Source: Nitrospirota bacterium (GTDB lineage Bacteria > Nitrospirota > UBA9217). Taken from it: 64,000 bases of DNA. The first letter of the stretch is position 1, and every line of letters starts with the position of its first letter. The notes beneath the pieces were generated by a model. It searched no databases. It saw only the letters and a program-made list of their open reading frames with translations, and had not been told where the DNA came from. Of this stretch, positions 20,027 through 51,993 are shown in pieces. The stretch covers positions 96,001 through 160,000 of the forward strand of contig CAVWHO010000017.1 in assembly GCA_963754875.1 (NCBI GenBank). The letters are read 5' to 3'. The position numbers were made by a program, and so were the translations under genes.

Positions 20027-20103
<77 letters not shown>

Positions 20104-24610: not shown

Positions 24611-24741
24611 TCGGTCCGAAAACCCCGAAGGTCGTCGGTTCAAATCCGGCCCCCGCTACCAAATCTATCAAGGGGTTACAGTTCATACTGTAACCCCTCT
24701 TTTTTTCTTCAGGACGGTATCAGGACAGTTACAGGACGGAA
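24611..24741 (+). repeat. att-like junction: tRNA-fMet 3' half plus terminator plus CAGGAC repeats
   Basis: Near-identical to 20066-20172; preceded by TCGGTCCGAAAA, as at 32539. Confidence 0.9.
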
Positions 24742-44099: not shown

Positions 44100-44131
44100 T
44101 AGGTGTTATGTGGAGCTCCACATAACACCTA
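44100..44131. repeat. Perfect 32-bp palindrome
   Basis: TAGGTGTTATGTGGAGCTCCACATAACACCTA is its own reverse complement. Confidence 0.97.
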
Positions 44132-44515
44132 TTATGGTGCGCCCGGCAGGGCGCGCTCACTTGGAGGTGTAAGTCCTCTACGGACCCTGATGACGGGAAC
44201 CGTTAGCCGAACCGCAAGGGCTGCCGCCGCGAGGCGGGGTCTGAAGGAAGCGGAACGCAAATCCCCGGCCCGAAGTACATGAAGCGCATACGAGGCAGCC
44301 GCGTCTGGGCGAGAAGGCCATAATATTCAAAGCCCGATAGTCATTCGGAAGACGTGGAAGTAGATGCGACGGGTATATGGGGAGAAAGTGGGTGCGCAAT
44401 ACCCGGGGAGGTCTGCAAGCTTGCTATGGCTACCACCGTCAAGAGACGGCGGGATGAGCTTGCAGAAGTCAGCCGAGGGCATACTAGTCGCTGCGCACAG
44501 CGATGAAGGCCCGAA

Positions 44516-45394
44516 CATGGAAGGACGGAGGGGTGCCGAAACCTCGATGGACGAAGCAGACGCGCGAAGGAAGGCTGAGATGCCAGAGGACTCCCGGAAG
44601 GTAGCGGGCGGAACCCGTAAGAATACGGCGAGGGAGCGTCAAGCGTCCGCGGCGGCAGAGGAGAACGCCCAGCCGGAAGCGACGAATCTCTTAGAGGAGG
44701 TATTGCGCCGTGAGAACCTGATAGCAGCCTTACATCGCGTCCAGTCGAACAAAGGAGCGCCGGGAGTAGACGGCATGACCGTTCTTGAACTCACGCCCTA
44801 CCTTAAGACGAACTGGCCGCGCATCCGGGAAGAGTTGCTGAGCGGACAGTACGACCCTGCGGCCGTCCTTCGGGTAGAAATCCCGAAGCCGGACGGAAAG
44901 GGAATGCGACTGCTCGGAATCCCCACCGTGCTCGATCGGTTCATCGAACAAGCAATATTGCAGGTACTCACCCCTATCTTCGATCCACAATTTAGCGAAA
45001 GCAGCTATGGTTTCCGCCGTGGACGGGGCTGTCACGGCGCAGTAAAAGCAGCTCGCGCCCATGTGGAAGCAGGCTACCGCTTTGTGGTGGACATGGACTT
45101 GGAAAAGTTCTTTGACCGCGTCAACCACGACGTACTTATGGTGCGGGTGGCCAGACGGGTCAAAGACAAGAGACTCCTCCGACTCATAGGCCGCTATTTG
45201 AGGGCAGGCATCATGATCGGAGGGATCGTTCAAGCCCACGAAGAAGGGACGCCACAAGGTAGCCCACTCTCGCCGCTTTTGTCTAATATCATCTTGGATG
45301 ATCTGGACAAGGAACTAGAGCGAAGAGGCCACCACTTCTGCCGGTACGCCGATGACTGTAATATCTACGTCAAGTCGAAGGCAGCCGGAGAACA
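44516..45394 (+). pseudogene. ltrA: Group II intron reverse transcriptase/maturase, 5' part (start uncertain)
   Basis: NKGAPGVDG, IPKPDG, RLLGIPT, SYGFR, DLEKFFD, GTPQGSPLSPLL, RYADD. Confidence 0.92.
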
Positions 45395-45586
45395 TGTTAG
45401 CGCCGGTCATGCCTGGACCCACCCGCGGCCAGATTTCGGACCCACTCACCGATTTTTGATCTACTGAGCAAACACCGGTTACCAGACCCACCCTCTTATC
45501 TTTCTATCTCCTCCCTTTCTATTTCTCATCGACAAGCGCATCATGTCTGTCCATATGTTCCTCATTGATCTCAAAGCGGAGGAAGT

Positions 45587-46003
45587 ATGGAGAAGACGTG
45601 CGCGTGCTGCAGCAAGACATTCATCCCATTGCCTACGGTACGCAACCAGCTGTACTGTTCGGAGACACAGTGTCAGAAGGCCAGGAAGAAACGATGGCAG
45701 AAGCGGAAGCTGATGACCGACGAAGCCTATCGAGAAAATCAAAGCGATGCCCGGAAAGCATGGGTCAAGAAGAACAGCGACTACTGGAAACGGTATCGGG
45801 AAAAGAATCCAGCCTACACAGAGCGCAATCGTCTTCTCCAAAGGGAGCGCAACCGGAGGAAGAGAGGGGCTCCAGTGATTGCAAAGATGGACGAGTTAAC
45901 CCCGCGAAAAACAATAGTTCCCGGACGATACAGGCTGGTTCCTGTGATTGCAAATATGGACGAGCTGATTGTGGAAATAGGCGTCATATCAGGGGTTTCG
46001 TAG
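45587..46003 (+). CDS. IS passenger: basic protein with N-terminal Cys motif
   Basis: GGAGG RBS; CACC...YCSETQC; duplicated VIA.MDEL. Confidence 0.7.
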   Translation: MEKTCACCSKTFIPLPTVRNQLYCSETQCQKARKKRWQKRKLMTDEAYRENQSDARKAWVKKNSDYWKRYREKNPAYTERNRLLQRERNRRKRGAPVIAKMDELTPRKTIVPGRYRLVPVIANMDELIVEIGVISGVS

Positions 46004-46100
46004 AGCAGCCGGTAAGCTCCTGATTGCAAAGAGATGACTTGATGGCTTTTCGTCATGCTGCCTGTTATGCTGGCCGTGCTTTTTAAGAGGAAGATCTCGT

Positions 46101-46973
46101 ATGCATGAAGCATTTCCCATAGAAGACCTTGCGGTATCGGCGATCGGCCGGAAGTACGCGGAACTTCGCATCGTAAAACCCCGGGCGGACAGGGTCATGG
46201 AGAAATCGATACGACAGTACGGCCAGATGCTTCCGACGATATGCGTCAGGTCCGGATTGGGCTACGAGATGATCGACGGGTTCAAGAGACTCAGGGCCTG
46301 CCAGCGGCTGGGAAGAACAACGCTTTCAGCGCGGATCCGGGAGGAGATGCCGGAACGCGTGTGCAAGGCCGCCGTTGTCCAGTTGAACCAGACGAGCATG
46401 TCCATAAGCGATCTGGAGGAGGCCATGGTGATTCAGTCCCTATATCGTAAGGACGGGATGAATCAGCCAGAGATCGCAGTTTTGTTCGGACGGGACAAGA
46501 GCTGGGTAAGCCGTCGGCTGTCCCTGATTGAGAGGCTTTCGGAAGAGGTTCGGAAGAACATTATGCTGGGACTGGTTTCGGTTGTAACGGGGAGGGAGTT
46601 GGCGCGGTTGCCGCGCGGCAACCAGGATGAAGCCTTGGCCGCTGTCGTCAAGCACTGGCTCAGCACCAGAGACGTGGCGAAGCTGACAAGCCATCTGTTG
46701 TCCCGCCCGTCATGGGAGTATGCGGTGATTCTCAAGAACCCCTGGGAGGTGCTGGATCTTGAGTCGAAACCATCGTCGTTCGATTTAAAAACGAGACTCC
46801 TGTCCATGCGGAAAAGCTGCCGGGCGGTATCAGATATCGCATCTACCTGTGGACGGCAGGAAGCGGAAAGACAGTCGGTCCTGATAGAGGGCGCCATCGC
46901 CGAGGCTCTTACGGCAGTAGAAAACTTAAGAGGCCTTATCCGCGCAAATGAGCAGGGAGTCAAGCAGTGTTGA
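46101..46973 (+). CDS. IS passenger: ParB/Srx N-terminal domain plus HTH protein
   Basis: SIRQYGQ..P, YEMIDGFKRLRA (GxxR), LEEAMVI..L, Q.EIA..FGRDKSWVSRRL.L. Confidence 0.85.
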   Translation: MHEAFPIEDLAVSAIGRKYAELRIVKPRADRVMEKSIRQYGQMLPTICVRSGLGYEMIDGFKRLRACQRLGRTTLSARIREEMPERVCKAAVVQLNQTSMSISDLEEAMVIQSLYRKDGMNQPEIAVLFGRDKSWVSRRLSLIERLSEEVRKNIMLGLVSVVTGRELARLPRGNQDEALAAVVKHWLSTRDVAKLTSHLLSRPSWEYAVILKNPWEVLDLESKPSSFDLKTRLLSMRKSCRAVSDIASTCGRQEAERQSVLIEGAIAEALTAVENLRGLIRANEQGVKQC

Positions 46974-48574
46974 TTAGGAGCCGCAAAGAACTGGAACATA
47001 AAGTGATCATCATGCATGCCGAAGGCTCGAGTATCCGCGAGCTCTCCCGGCGTTTCCATTTGGGTCGTAACACCATCCGAAGAATCCTCCGGGACCATAC
47101 GAGCCGTCGTGATCAAGGGCATGATATCCTGACAAAGCCCCCTGTTCGGACGAGCAAGCTGGATGTCTATGCTCCACTGATTAAAGAAACGCTTGAGAAA
47201 TACCCGACCATCACGGGCCTGCGGGTCTATGAAAAACTTAAGGACGCCGGCTATGCTGGCGGCATCACCATCGTGCGGGAACAGCTCAGGAAGCTGGGAG
47301 CAGTGAAAAGGGATCCGGTAATCCGGTTCGAAACGGGTCCAGCGCAGCAATCGCAAATGGATTGGAGCCCCTACACGATCCACTTCACGCGCACGGGCAA
47401 GATGACGGTCTTGTGCTTCTCCTATATCCTGGGCTACTCCCGGAGACAGTATATCGACTTCACCCTTCGTCGTGACTTCCACACTCTTATCCGTCGGCAT
47501 CAAGATGCCTTTCAGTACTATGGCGGGGTTGCAAGGGAGTGTCTTTACGATAACGAGAAGACCGTTGTGCTTCGGTGGGAAGCAGGACGACCGATCTTTA
47601 ACCCGGCGTTCGCGGATTTTATAACGTTCTATCGCTGCAAACCAATAGCCTGTCGACCGAGGACGCCCCAAACAAAAGGAAAAATAGAATCCCCTTTTAA
47701 ATATGTGGAATCCAACTTGCTGGGTGGAAGAGATTTCCAGGATATCGAAGACCTTCGTGCTACCGCCAGATGGTGGCTCAAGGAGAAGTCCGATCTGCAT
47801 ATCCATGACACCACCCGACGAGCGCCGATCGAGCTGTTTCAGGAAGAGAAGCAGAAGCTTCAGCCCCTCCCTCTTCATCCTTACGATACCTCCGAGGTTG
47901 CACTACGGGTCTGTGAAGGAGACGGCTTCATAGAGTTTGAAGTGAACTGGTACTCCGTGCCGCCCAAAAACATAGCCGACATCGTAACGCCTAAAGCGAC
48001 GGAACGGGAAGTGTTGATTTACAGTCCGGAGCTGGAGCTGATTGCCCGGCACGAAAGGCAGCCCGCGGGGAGCCGCAAGCGGATGGAGAACCCGGAGCAT
48101 TTTGTGACAAAGAAAATCCGCTATGGTCTGGAGCCTGTACGAGAGGCGTTTATCGCGCTGGGAGACGGCGCTGAAAGCTTCCTCGCAGGGCTTACAAACA
48201 AACAGCCACGGAACTGCGGGTTCCATGCCCGGTTCATCCTGCGGCTTAGAGAAGAGTATCAAAGCGAGGACATTAATAACGCCCTAAAGCACGCGGAGCG
48301 GTACCAGGCATACGAGGGTGGAGCCGTGGAGCGGATTTTAAAAGCCATGGCCACCCCCCGTACCCTGGAGTCTATCCGCAATGAGCATGCGCGTCAGGAA
48401 CTAGGGAAGACCCTGCCCAGAATCACCCAGCGGTCGTTGGATGAATACCAATCCTTGATGGGAGAAGAAAAAAACCACCATGAACAAAAAAACGACGGTG
48501 CCGGACGAGACGGTGACGAACATCAAGAAACATCTTGCGACTCTGAAGCTGACGGGAATACAGAAGGTACTTGA
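46967..48574 (+). CDS. istA: IS21 transposase
   Basis: N-terminal HTH; RFETGP..Q.QMDW, YDNEKT, KGKIE DDE motifs. Confidence 0.93.
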   Translation: MLIRSRKELEHKVIIMHAEGSSIRELSRRFHLGRNTIRRILRDHTSRRDQGHDILTKPPVRTSKLDVYAPLIKETLEKYPTITGLRVYEKLKDAGYAGGITIVREQLRKLGAVKRDPVIRFETGPAQQSQMDWSPYTIHFTRTGKMTVLCFSYILGYSRRQYIDFTLRRDFHTLIRRHQDAFQYYGGVARECLYDNEKTVVLRWEAGRPIFNPAFADFITFYRCKPIACRPRTPQTKGKIESPFKYVESNLLGGRDFQDIEDLRATARWWLKEKSDLHIHDTTRRAPIELFQEEKQKLQPLPLHPYDTSEVALRVCEGDGFIEFEVNWYSVPPKNIADIVTPKATEREVLIYSPELELIARHERQPAGSRKRMENPEHFVTKKIRYGLEPVREAFIALGDGAESFLAGLTNKQPRNCGFHARFILRLREEYQSEDINNALKHAERYQAYEGGAVERILKAMATPRTLESIRNEHARQELGKTLPRITQRSLDEYQSLMGEEKNHHEQKNDGAGRDGDEHQETSCDSEADGNTEGT

Positions 48575-49286
48575 CGATGAACTGACCAAGGCAACGGCGA
48601 AGCATCTGCCTCCCACCGAACTCCTGGAGCGGGTGCTCTCGGTAGAAGCCCATGCCCGTGTCGAACGAAGGATCGAACGGAGGATCAGGGAAGCAAAGCT
48701 CTCGGAACGAAAGCTTCTTGCCGACTTCGACTTCGTCTTCCAGACCGGCGTGGACAAGGCGCAGATCATGGAGCTGGCCAAGCTGGACTTCGTGGGCCGC
48801 AGGCAGGGGCTGGTTATGGCGGGCAACTCGGGAACTGGCAAGAGCCATCTTGCCAAGGCGCTTCTTCTCATCGGTTGCACCAAGCTCTATCGCTGCCGCT
48901 ACACCACCGCGGCCGACATGCTGGTCGACCTTATGTCCGGCCTCGCCGACAACAGCCTTCCGAAGCGGCTCAAAGAGTATACCGTTCCTGATATCCTTTT
49001 TATCGATGAACTGGGGTTCGATCGTCTTGAGCAGTATGATGCCAGGAACGCATCCCTCTTCTTCAAGGTCATCGACGGCCGGTACTGCAAGGGATCCACG
49101 CTCATCACTACGAATATCGATTTTAAAGAACTCGGAGATTACCTGGGCGACCCCGTGGTCACAACTGCTATCGTGGACCGCATGGTGCACCACTCCGTCA
49201 TCATCAATATCAAGGGGCCGAGCTACCGTATGCACGAATCAAAGAAGCTCAACTCAAAAGTAAAGAAACCCTCCGAATCAAAGTAA
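48480..49286 (+). CDS. istB: IS21 helper AAA+ ATPase
   Basis: GNSGTGKSHLA, LFIDELG, ITTN, AIVDRMVHH, G.SYR. Confidence 0.95.
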   Translation: MNKKTTVPDETVTNIKKHLATLKLTGIQKVLDDELTKATAKHLPPTELLERVLSVEAHARVERRIERRIREAKLSERKLLADFDFVFQTGVDKAQIMELAKLDFVGRRQGLVMAGNSGTGKSHLAKALLLIGCTKLYRCRYTTAADMLVDLMSGLADNSLPKRLKEYTVPDILFIDELGFDRLEQYDARNASLFFKVIDGRYCKGSTLITTNIDFKELGDYLGDPVVTTAIVDRMVHHSVIINIKGPSYRMHESKKLNSKVKKPSESK

Positions 49287-49542
49287 AACCCTCAAACGCA
49301 ATCCGTCCGTTCTTCCTCTACATGCACCAACACACAACCCTCTGCGCTCAATCTTTACGCTCTAATGCTCATAAAAAAATCCAACTTCACAAGAAATATC
49401 TCTGACAAAAGGTAGAATCGAAATCTAGACGGGTCTTCAAACCGGCGCGGATCCTATCGGTTAATCAAAATCACGCAACTTCAAGTGGGTCCAGCAAAAC
49501 CGCTGAGGTGGGTCCGTTTCAAGCCGGTGGTAGCAGAGAACA

Positions 49543-50098
49543 GGTGATGCAGTCAATCACCCGGTTTCTTGCAAAGAAGCTACGCTTGACGGTTAACAAA
49601 GAAAAGAGCGCGGTAGACCGTCCTTGGAACCGCAAGTTCCTCGGTTACACCATGACATTGCATCGTAGCCCGAAACTCAAGGTGTCGCCGAAAAGCATCA
49701 AGAGAGCCAAGGCGCGTGTTAAGGAGATCACCCGAAAGGGACGGGGACGCTCACTGCCGAAGGTGATTGCCGAACTTACGAAGTACCTTCGGGGATGGGT
49801 AAATTACTTCCGGCTGTCCCAAGTGAAGATCGCTTTCGAGGAACTGGATCAATGGATACGGCGGAAACTGCGCTGTGTCCTCTGGCGACAATGGAAGAAG
49901 CCGCGAACCAGAGCCAAGAAACTTATCCAGCTAGGGATAGAAAAGGTAAGAGCTTTTGCCTCAGCCTACAATGGCCGGGGTCCATGGTGGAACGCCGGCG
50001 CGTCACATATGAACGCTGCGGTAACCGCCAAAGGGCTACAACAACAGGGACTCATGAGTCTTCTCACAGAGCATCGACGCTTTACAGACCTTGCGTGA
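49543..50098 (+). pseudogene. ltrA: Group II intron RT, 3' part (thumb/maturase X; no endonuclease domain)
   Basis: LRLTVNKEKS, FLGY, LRGWVNYF, LDQWIRRKLR; removing the IS restores ...AAGEQVMQS... Confidence 0.92.
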
Positions 50099-50720
50099 AC
50101 CGCCGTATGCCGAACGGCACGTACGTGTGGTGTGAGAGGCTGGGGCCGGAAGGCCCCCGCCTACTCGATTGAAGTTCCCCGTTATGTGAATCGTTTGCAT
50201 TAAATCCTTTATTAGTGCCTATTCTGCGAGAATTTACTCCACATAATAATGCCGCTGTCTTCGATATCCTCTTCATTGGAACCAATCAAATGAGGAGGTG
50301 CATATGGTCACGTCACAAGAGGAATGGAATTTGAATTGCACTGAATACTGTGCGATTTAAGCAGTCCCGTGAGTGTCTTTCTTCTTTTGAACCCGCTTAC
50401 ACGGTGACAATCTAAAATACCTGATCAAACAAAGAAACAACATTGTATACTGCTTTGATTCGTCGTAAGAGCCTCCGTTATGTGAAGTAAATTGTTAGAA
50501 AACCGCTGAATTTCCTTTGCTCACGACATTTGCTTCACATAACGGGGAACTTCACATAATAGGTGAACTTGAGAAAATCCAGTGTGCTAAAAAATATCAA
50601 AAAAGGCAAAATAGACGTAATTGATACAATCAATACATGATGGATAACACCTCGATTATCAAAGCAAAACGGGAAACCAGGCTTTAATCAAGGGTCTCTA
50701 AAAAATGGCTTGTTGTCGCG

Positions 50721-50830
50721 CATAACCCGAAGGTCGTCTGTTCAAATCCGGCCCCCGTGCCAATCAATACAAAGGGTTACAGCACATGCTGTAACCCTTT
50801 GCTATCCCAGTGGGCCGGTAATGGGCCGGT
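50721..50830 (+). repeat. att-like junction: tRNA-fMet 3' part plus variant terminator plus TGGGCCGGT repeat
   Basis: CATAACCCGAAGGTCGTCTGTTCAAATCCGGCCCCCG; AAAGGGTTACAGC-ACAT-GCTGTAACCCTTT. Confidence 0.85.
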
Positions 50831-50871
50831 CTCCTCAATGCTGTCCCCGCTACCTAAAATGGGAGATCGTC

Positions 50872-51329: not shown

Positions 51330-51611
51330 ATGACAAAACTTATTATTGAAACCGATGATGCCTGGGCTCGTGAAAAGATCAAATTTGCCATCGATACGGA
51401 AATTCACCTCCTAAAAAAAACAGTCGAAAAGATCGACCGTAAAATAAAAGACTTTGAGAAACAATATGGGCAGCTCGACCGAGAAAATCTCTACGGTAAA
51501 GTAGACGACATGATCCTTGTTGAATGGGAGGGAGAGGCAGAGGCAGAATCTCTGCGGCGTGTTCAGGGCAGACTGAAATCGCTTGAGGAGATCAGCTTTG
51601 AGTATCGATAG
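51330..51611 (+). CDS. Putative antitoxin (TumA-like)
   Basis: FEKQYG...D.D..EWE pattern; overlaps the downstream toxin gene. Confidence 0.65.
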   Translation: MTKLIIETDDAWAREKIKFAIDTEIHLLKKTVEKIDRKIKDFEKQYGQLDRENLYGKVDDMILVEWEGEAEAESLRRVQGRLKSLEEISFEYR

Positions 51612-51993
51612 TTATATTGCAGATTTCGAAACTGTCATTTCAACGCATTCCTTCGTCTCTTCCTACTCGCTCACCATCGATAGAAAAACTCGTGATATTA
51701 CTTTTCTCTCGGAAACCATAGAATTCAGGAATGGAACAGTACTTGATTTTAAGGAGTTTATCGAGAGTAAAGGCACGGCGATAGAAAAATATCTTTATGG
51801 ATACAATCATCGTCTGGGCAGTACTCTCATTTTCCGCTACGACAATTCCCCGGATCCACGCGCACGCCAGATAAGAACATTCCCGCACCACAAGCATCTT
51901 CCGCCGGACAAGCTTGTCGATTCCGACAGACTGATTGACTTGCCTGCTGATCTGAAGGAGATTGAGGGCTTACATACTGAATCGGAAGAATAA
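51583..51993 (+). CDS. Putative toxin, TumE/DUF6516 family
   Basis: Y.Y......IFRYDN.P......TFPHHKH. Confidence 0.75.
   Translation: MRRSALSIDSYIADFETVISTHSFVSSYSLTIDRKTRDITFLSETIEFRNGTVLDFKEFIESKGTAIEKYLYGYNHRLGSTLIFRYDNSPDPRARQIRTFPHHKHLPPDKLVDSDRLIDLPADLKEIEGLHTESEE

Follow-up and report, generated by a model that had tools for sequence, protein, structure and literature searches.

A putative deletion derivative of a recombinase-in-trio element, with a side palindrome and a group IIC intron in its left repeat, in a Nitrospirota genome

A stretch of 64,000 nucleotides from a Nitrospirota bacterium (assembly GCA_963754875.1, contig CAVWHO010000017.1, positions 96,001 to 160,000; hereafter the window, in whose coordinates all positions are given) contains a small unit with tyrosine-recombinase-type ends, no recombinase gene, a palindrome at its left side and a 6-kb interruption in its left repeat. 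This raises the question of where such a unit comes from, how it reached this place and what part the palindrome played. We propose, with a probability of roughly 0.7, that it is an internally deleted recombinase-in-trio (RIT) element, likely moved here in trans by the recombinases RitA, RitB and RitC (RitABC) and later likely immobilised by a group IIC intron that entered its left repeat. In the parts of the RIT literature available, the ends are described as a 28-9 bp repeat with an overlapping palindrome that does not fit the usual core and arm sites (PMC3414803, 2012), palindromes at the ends are reported and hairpin intermediates suggested (PMC5737581), and the target rule, the intermediate and the movement are listed as untested (PMC10214605); further accounts are found in PMC8138268 and PMC2864759.

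Ends, interior and relatives of the unit

When the intron was excised in silico, positions 44126-44136 joined to 50170-50190 gave a 32-base sequence exactly reverse-complementary to 50534-50565, just as the original prediction, made from the letters of this DNA by joining 44136 to 50170, had claimed. The terminal inverted repeat proper accounts for 26 of these 32 bp and is perfect, the remaining 6 being a spacer that varies among relatives. Without the intron, the order is a 6-mer, a 20-bp palindrome, the reverse-complement 6-mer, a unit of 395 bp from repeat to repeat bearing the 26-bp repeats, and a last 6-mer, so that the 6-mer appears in direct, inverted and direct order around a remnant of about 0.43 kb overall. 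Cores of the TTATG/CATAA type lie at 44106, 44121, 44132, 50182, 50242, 50478, 50538 and 50555, and each element end shows one inner inverted core in addition to two direct cores spaced 17 bp apart; these cores, like the TAGGTG that directly flanks the unit at 44100-44105 and 50560-50565, were located where the original prediction had placed them. The unit thus has its terminal repeats, of which the left was intact only prior to the intron, and no coding capacity. The suggested genome-wide search for the repeat and the palindrome returned no further copies, since repeat, palindrome and double core each occur once in the 4.3-Mb assembly.

The interior was aligned with the complete elements at loci L050, L052 and L082, and both the end with the ritA start and the end with the ritC tail aligned at 66-75%. 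The two alignments overlap at 50368-50387, which marks the deletion joint. A GGAGGT-ATG that had been called an orphan is instead the start of ritA, because the unit aligns here to the ritA end of full elements; its ATG is at 50304 and a stop follows after 18 codons. RIT elements are defined by three adjacent, overlapping tyrosine recombinase genes (ritA-ritB-ritC), a length of about 3.5 kb, terminal inverted repeats of about 28-34 bp and a palindrome at one end. The window copy has a ritA start and a ritC tail, a length of 395 bp, perfect repeats of 26 bp (32 with the spacer) and a palindrome at 44106-44125. As the trio genes are gone, we file it as a RIT deletion derivative and not as a member of the RIT group, an assignment well supported by sequence comparison: the three recombinase genes were apparently lost, while both ends and the side palindrome were kept. 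The internally deleted RIT-like element of the original prediction is borne out by this ritA/ritC deletion product.

To place the unit among its relatives, a degenerate repeat pattern was scanned over species-representative genomes, yielding 84 loci (numbered with the prefix L), 80 of which were examined. Both kinds of relative that had been expected were present. At 11 of the 80 loci, paired repeats 3.15-3.5 kb apart surround three genes that overlap one another, namely ritA, ritB and ritC, and another 11 are mini-elements whose paired repeats are 282-465 bp apart; the other loci reached a contig edge or had no partner repeat within 6 kb. The full elements closest to the window unit are from Nitrospirota and, in one case, from Bacteroidales. 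The Phage_integrase domain was detected in all six trio proteins tested, and the nine proteins of L049, L052 and L055 each matched best the protein in the same position of the RITs of Sphingobium herbicidovorans MH or pHG1 (28-41% identity), by which the recombinases of the relatives appear to belong to the RitA, RitB and RitC classes.

Alignment and identity divide the mini-elements into at least four deletion types, the window type included. That type was encountered in three of 14 genomes of the same genus (G001, with two copies, G002 and G003), where the copies are 69-79% identical and share the deletion joint at unrelated flanks; G012 has a match to one end only. Three other mini-elements (L084, L095, L114) are 98-99% identical and occupy three places of one genome (G081). 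These distributions bear on a first alternative, namely that a full RIT inserted at this locus and lost its middle in place, mini-elements being immobile dead ends. The single copy in the window's own genome, the lack of a helper trio in the assembly and the stops in the ritA remnant are what such decay would leave, but it accounts poorly for the same joint at unrelated flanks in three other genomes and for three near-identical copies at three places of one genome, and we consider it improbable. As a separate observation, mini-elements of differing deletion types gather at 372-397 bp (L053, L054, L084, L094, L095, L097, L100, L114, L116 and the window unit), which may reflect a constraint on size or spacing.

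Proteins that could act as helpers were sought in several ways. In the window's own genome, the best matches to nine Rit proteins are Xer-like genes with 21-31% identity, and the 14 matches to PF00589 include no trio. One candidate, at C22:48140-50054, was rejected, being an Xer-like pair beside a primase-like gene and lacking these cores. A family-wide search with RitA (E 1e-50) returned none in 64 genomes and one with RitB none in five genomes, both without a positive control, and the sole match to RitC was in G001 (33-39% identity). The terminal repeat had no match among viral contigs.

The palindrome and its three spacers

The original prediction rightly placed a palindrome outside the left end, but gave it 20 bp; counting the two mirrored 6-mers, the perfect palindrome covers 32 bp (44100-44131). 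The whole assembly has two perfect palindromes of 32 bp and five of at least 24 bp. As single-stranded DNA, the 32-bp palindrome folds with -16.9 kcal/mol (z -8.7), and none of 200 shuffled sequences was as stable. The second one (G000:C20:179251-179282) stands alone between two head-to-head integrase C-terminal fragments and resembles the 20-bp palindrome of another RIT type (L027).

Among 83 related ends with enough flank, 27 have a palindrome exactly 6 bp outside the repeat, one palindrome-bearing end per element being expected. The palindrome is on the ritA side in 6 and on the ritC side in 9 of 15 classifiable ends (12 were unclassified), and in the near-identical pairs L055/L087 and L095/L114 the element has opposite orientations relative to the palindrome.

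The original prediction had ascribed palindromic targets to RIT elements, and this had to be corrected. At L055, L065, L077, L087 and L108, deletion of the palindrome, the inner spacer, the element and one 6-mer restores a reading frame through the motif N-H-x-(H/N)-L; the same deletion at six Nitrospirota-type loci revealed no motif of this kind. Since removal of the palindrome together with the element restores the gene frame at the five loci, the palindrome is not part of the target, and these reconstructions show it to belong to the element. As to the interrupted genes, the Desulfobacterota-type branch (the five loci just named and others) inserts in IS200/Y1-type transposase genes, at the His-x codons of their HUH motif; when six flank pieces were tested against Pfam Y1_Tnp, four matched weakly, with E values of 1e-4 to 3e-3, under the curated cut-off.

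A second alternative must be weighed here, in which the palindrome is a scar of insertion (for instance a replicated hairpin end) or was present in the target beforehand, and has no travelling role. Such an origin would suit the solo palindromes at L129, L133 and L134, the palindromes on both sides of one element (L082) and the hairpin intermediates suggested for RITs in the available part of a mobilome study (PMC5737581). The reconstructed targets, however, have no palindrome; moreover, the arms of the palindrome do not always match the repeat beside them (AAATG variants turn up repeatedly at unrelated sites), which fits inheritance, and the inner 6-mer is often unlike the local target. We therefore hold a scar or a target palindrome to be unlikely and retain a palindrome that travels with the element.

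The three 6-mers were compared in 19 rows of palindrome-bearing elements, one element being counted twice and the window copy included. The two outer 6-mers are identical in 14 rows and differ at no more than one position in 18; 13 of the 19 rows have all three in agreement, and in 3 the inner 6-mer differs from both outer ones by at least 2 bases. At the 17 palindrome ends of the His type, the inner and the adjacent outer 6-mer differ in 12 cases, 11 of which still have an inner 6-mer starting with a His codon, as expected if this 6-mer were the leftover of an earlier HUH target.

An empty allele in relatives, which the original prediction had hoped for, was not recovered: no allele joining both flanks was seen in 63 family genomes or in four sequencing runs, and no clean empty copy of the L055 or L114 targets was found. 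What does exist are homologues of the left flank in three of the 63 family genomes, which pass a single TAGGTG into non-element DNA and have no palindrome. The four runs displayed neither an empty nor an inverted allele, with the mini-element hardly covered and the intron covered.

Several observations weigh against the proposal of a deletion derivative moved in trans together with its palindrome. Besides the missing joined allele, only one of the three left-flank homologues resembles the right flank (9 of 15 bases). An adjacent palindrome is absent from 56 of the 83 ends, though half are expected to lack one, and the complete units L053 and L100 show none in the flank read. The solo palindromes mentioned above, each with a TAGGTG spacer, lie in three family genomes with no adjacent element, and opposite orientations could also result from insertion either way round. 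In most ends of the His type the contig stops short of the far spacer, so that any of the three 6-mers could be the target's own there; L071 fits poorly, its outer pair differing at 2 places. The window's own genome has one mini copy only, a cognate ritABC trio was not found in its 90%-complete assembly, and no RitB match was obtained in G081, which has the three near-identical mini-elements, in a search without a positive control. Finally, the related genomes are non-independent samples.

Elements nested in the unit and neighbouring features

The insertion that splits the left repeat (Table 1) has domains matching Rfam RF02001 and RF01998 and a reverse transcriptase/maturase matching TIGR04416 above cut-off. 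Its limits are backed by two copies in the same genome, about 99% identical (C18, C20), and by contigs from other runs, which extend across an intron lacking the inner insertion sequence. A short domain 5 with a CGC triad is a mark of class IIC, and this feature, together with the target habit, was the basis on which the class was assigned. Group IIC introns insert shortly after a stem-loop, according to the part of PMC7923331 available, and a hairpin of about -14 to -16 kcal/mol precedes each of the three copies in this genome. Within the intron, an element of the IS21 family is bordered by a 7-bp direct repeat (45388-45394 and 49536-49542); in it, istA and istB are preceded by a small open reading frame and a ParB-like gene, and the element occurs once in the assembly.

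Neither metagenome matches nor 64 genomes yielded a second intron at a RIT end. The intron junction pattern gave 11 matches in metagenomes, none of which continues into an intron and two of which are ends of another RIT type, and in the 64 genomes it recovered the window and one match with 1 mismatch. Because the left repeat has its outer core interrupted by the intron and no cognate trio was found in the assembly, the window copy is probably an inert relic. Inversion in trans, which the original prediction had allowed for, is thus unlikely for the present copy, with 6 kb inside its left repeat and no cognate ritABC found.

Other elements occupy the inner site of relatives. Units of about 2.55 kb with an IS91-family transposase and an integron-like integrase are present at L050, L054, L097 and L069, and also at RIT ends in L025, L026 and L029; they enter exactly where the 6-bp spacer meets the TT of a core, with the same end beside the spacer each time. 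As they sit precisely there in four loci, the inner site does attract other elements. The unit of L010 was considered as an autonomous partner of the mini-elements and rejected, for it has its own ends and other sites. A third alternative, in which a recombinase other than RitABC acts on the sites (the host's Xer, the integrase of an integron or the one linked to IS91), can point to these units and to the likeness of CATAA-N6-TTATG to Xer-type cores. All 11 long elements between paired repeats nevertheless carry ritA, ritB and ritC, and the IS91 elements end in sequences of their own and are present in many copies at other places, so that this alternative appears very unlikely and RitABC remain the preferred agents.

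Table 1. Features of the RIT-derived unit and of the elements nested in it (window positions)
Feature	Position	Strand	Support
Outer left 6-bp spacer TAGGTG, likely target 6-mer	44100..44105	+	Same 6-mer at 50560; flank homologues
20-bp palindrome, two back-to-back recombinase-type arms, element-borne	44106..44125	.	27/83 related ends; absent from reconstructed targets
Inner 6-bp spacer CACCTA, reverse complement of outer spacers; centre of full CATAA-N6-TTATG site	44126..44131	+	
Left 26-bp terminal repeat, first 5 bp, forming the 5' exon of the intron	44132..44136	+	
Group IIC intron in left repeat, 5 nt past the 32-bp hairpin; reverse transcriptase/maturase gene split	44137..50169	+	
IS21-family element (ParB-like gene, istA, istB) inside the intron open reading frame	45395..49535	+	
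Left terminal repeat, other 21 bp, with second core	50170..50190	+	
Left-end inner inverted core	50236..50246	-	Conserved in full and mini relatives
Ribosome-binding site and decayed ritA 5' remnant	50293..50387	+	69% identity over 221 columns to ritA end of L052
Decayed ritC 3' remnant	50368..50477	+	66-72% identity over ~193 columns to ritC ends of L050, L052, L082
Right-end inner inverted core	50478..50488	+	
Intact 26-bp terminal repeat of the right end, with two cores spaced 17 bp apart	50534..50559	-	
Outer right 6-bp spacer TAGGTG	50560..50565	+	

A promoter scan of 50150-50850 gave 1 site against 1.6 expected. Elsewhere, a tRNA-Met gene lies at 20027-20103, and its 3' end, together with the terminator, recurs in four degenerate copies, at 24624, 32549, 50718-50797 (150 bp right of the mini-element) and C17:173641; this looks like tandem islands integrated at tRNA-Met. 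Two small adjoining genes at 51330-51993, the second of which matches Pfam TumE, are probably a toxin-antitoxin pair.

A possible route of movement and comparison with known systems

The mobile unit would consist of the palindrome, the spacer and the element. RitABC would link the palindrome's outer arm and the element's far arm across a 6-mer, and the resulting circle would bear two CATAA-N6-TTATG sites in mirror image; one of them would be spent on the new target 6-mer, and the other would stay inside, at first with the 6-mer of the earlier site. Were the element to invert between this inner site and its far end, the inner 6-mer would become the target's reverse complement; such an inversion would explain both the occurrence of the two orientations and the matching of all three 6-mers. 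Mini-elements would use the same route in trans. For the window copy, the events would have followed one another as deletion in a shared ancestor, insertion at this locus, arrival of the intron, for which the 32-bp hairpin would have served as a usual IIC target, and arrival of the IS21-family element.

Extended to the family as a whole, and here only tentatively, RITs could be two-site tyrosine transposons with a travelling palindrome, in which the idle site records the previous 6-bp target until a flip; mini-elements of 370-400 bp would arise repeatedly and spread in trans, and the inner site would be a landing spot for IS91-integrase units and the IIC intron. With the outermost arm intact on either side, the whole 6.5-kb nest might still be excised as cargo.

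RITs are widespread and often lie beside catabolic and plasmid genes. The palindrome likely gives a RIT element a second recombination site, and in this respect offers a clue to how the family moves. A natural mini-element of 0.4 kb defines the cis-acting parts, and its three spacers give clear predictions; the window copy, itself a relic, is of value as a lesson in anatomy and as an instance in which the hairpin of a recombination site has served a group IIC intron.

Compared with the RITs of Cupriavidus metallidurans CH34, C. necator pHG1 and S. herbicidovorans MH, the window copy has a terminal repeat of similar length with TTATG cores and a palindrome at one end, and its full-length relatives of 3.15-3.5 kb have overlapping ritA-ritB-ritC genes; it differs in having no recombinase gene, a length of 395 bp and a left repeat split by an intron. 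It also presents palindrome, spacers and cores as a legible four-arm layout, which the available parts of PMC3414803, PMC2864759, PMC5737581, PMC8138268 and PMC10214605 leave uninterpreted. Our literature search, which stopped short of Ricker et al. 2013, found no paper on mini-RITs. Tn554 and the strand-biased circularizing elements (SEs) are likewise multi-recombinase tyrosine elements with a known 6-bp footprint, carried from the donor to the new site, but from what is available of PMC10214605 they have a single junction, a footprint at the outer end and other genes, whereas in the present family the extra palindrome creates an inner site, and it is there that the footprint appears to be kept. 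With group IIC introns, IIC-attC included, the intron shares insertion a few bases after a stem-loop and a short intron-binding site 1 (IBS1), as given in the part of PMC7923331 available. It differs in that the hairpin is a RIT palindrome and not a terminator or attC, which was seen once, the other two intron copies (C18, C20) following terminator-like hairpins. Lastly, miniature inverted-repeat transposable elements (MITEs) are non-autonomous derivatives of insertion sequences, and the window unit resembles them in having kept its ends, lost its genes and, as we infer, spread in trans; its ends, however, are tyrosine-recombinase sites and not the repeats of a DDE transposase.

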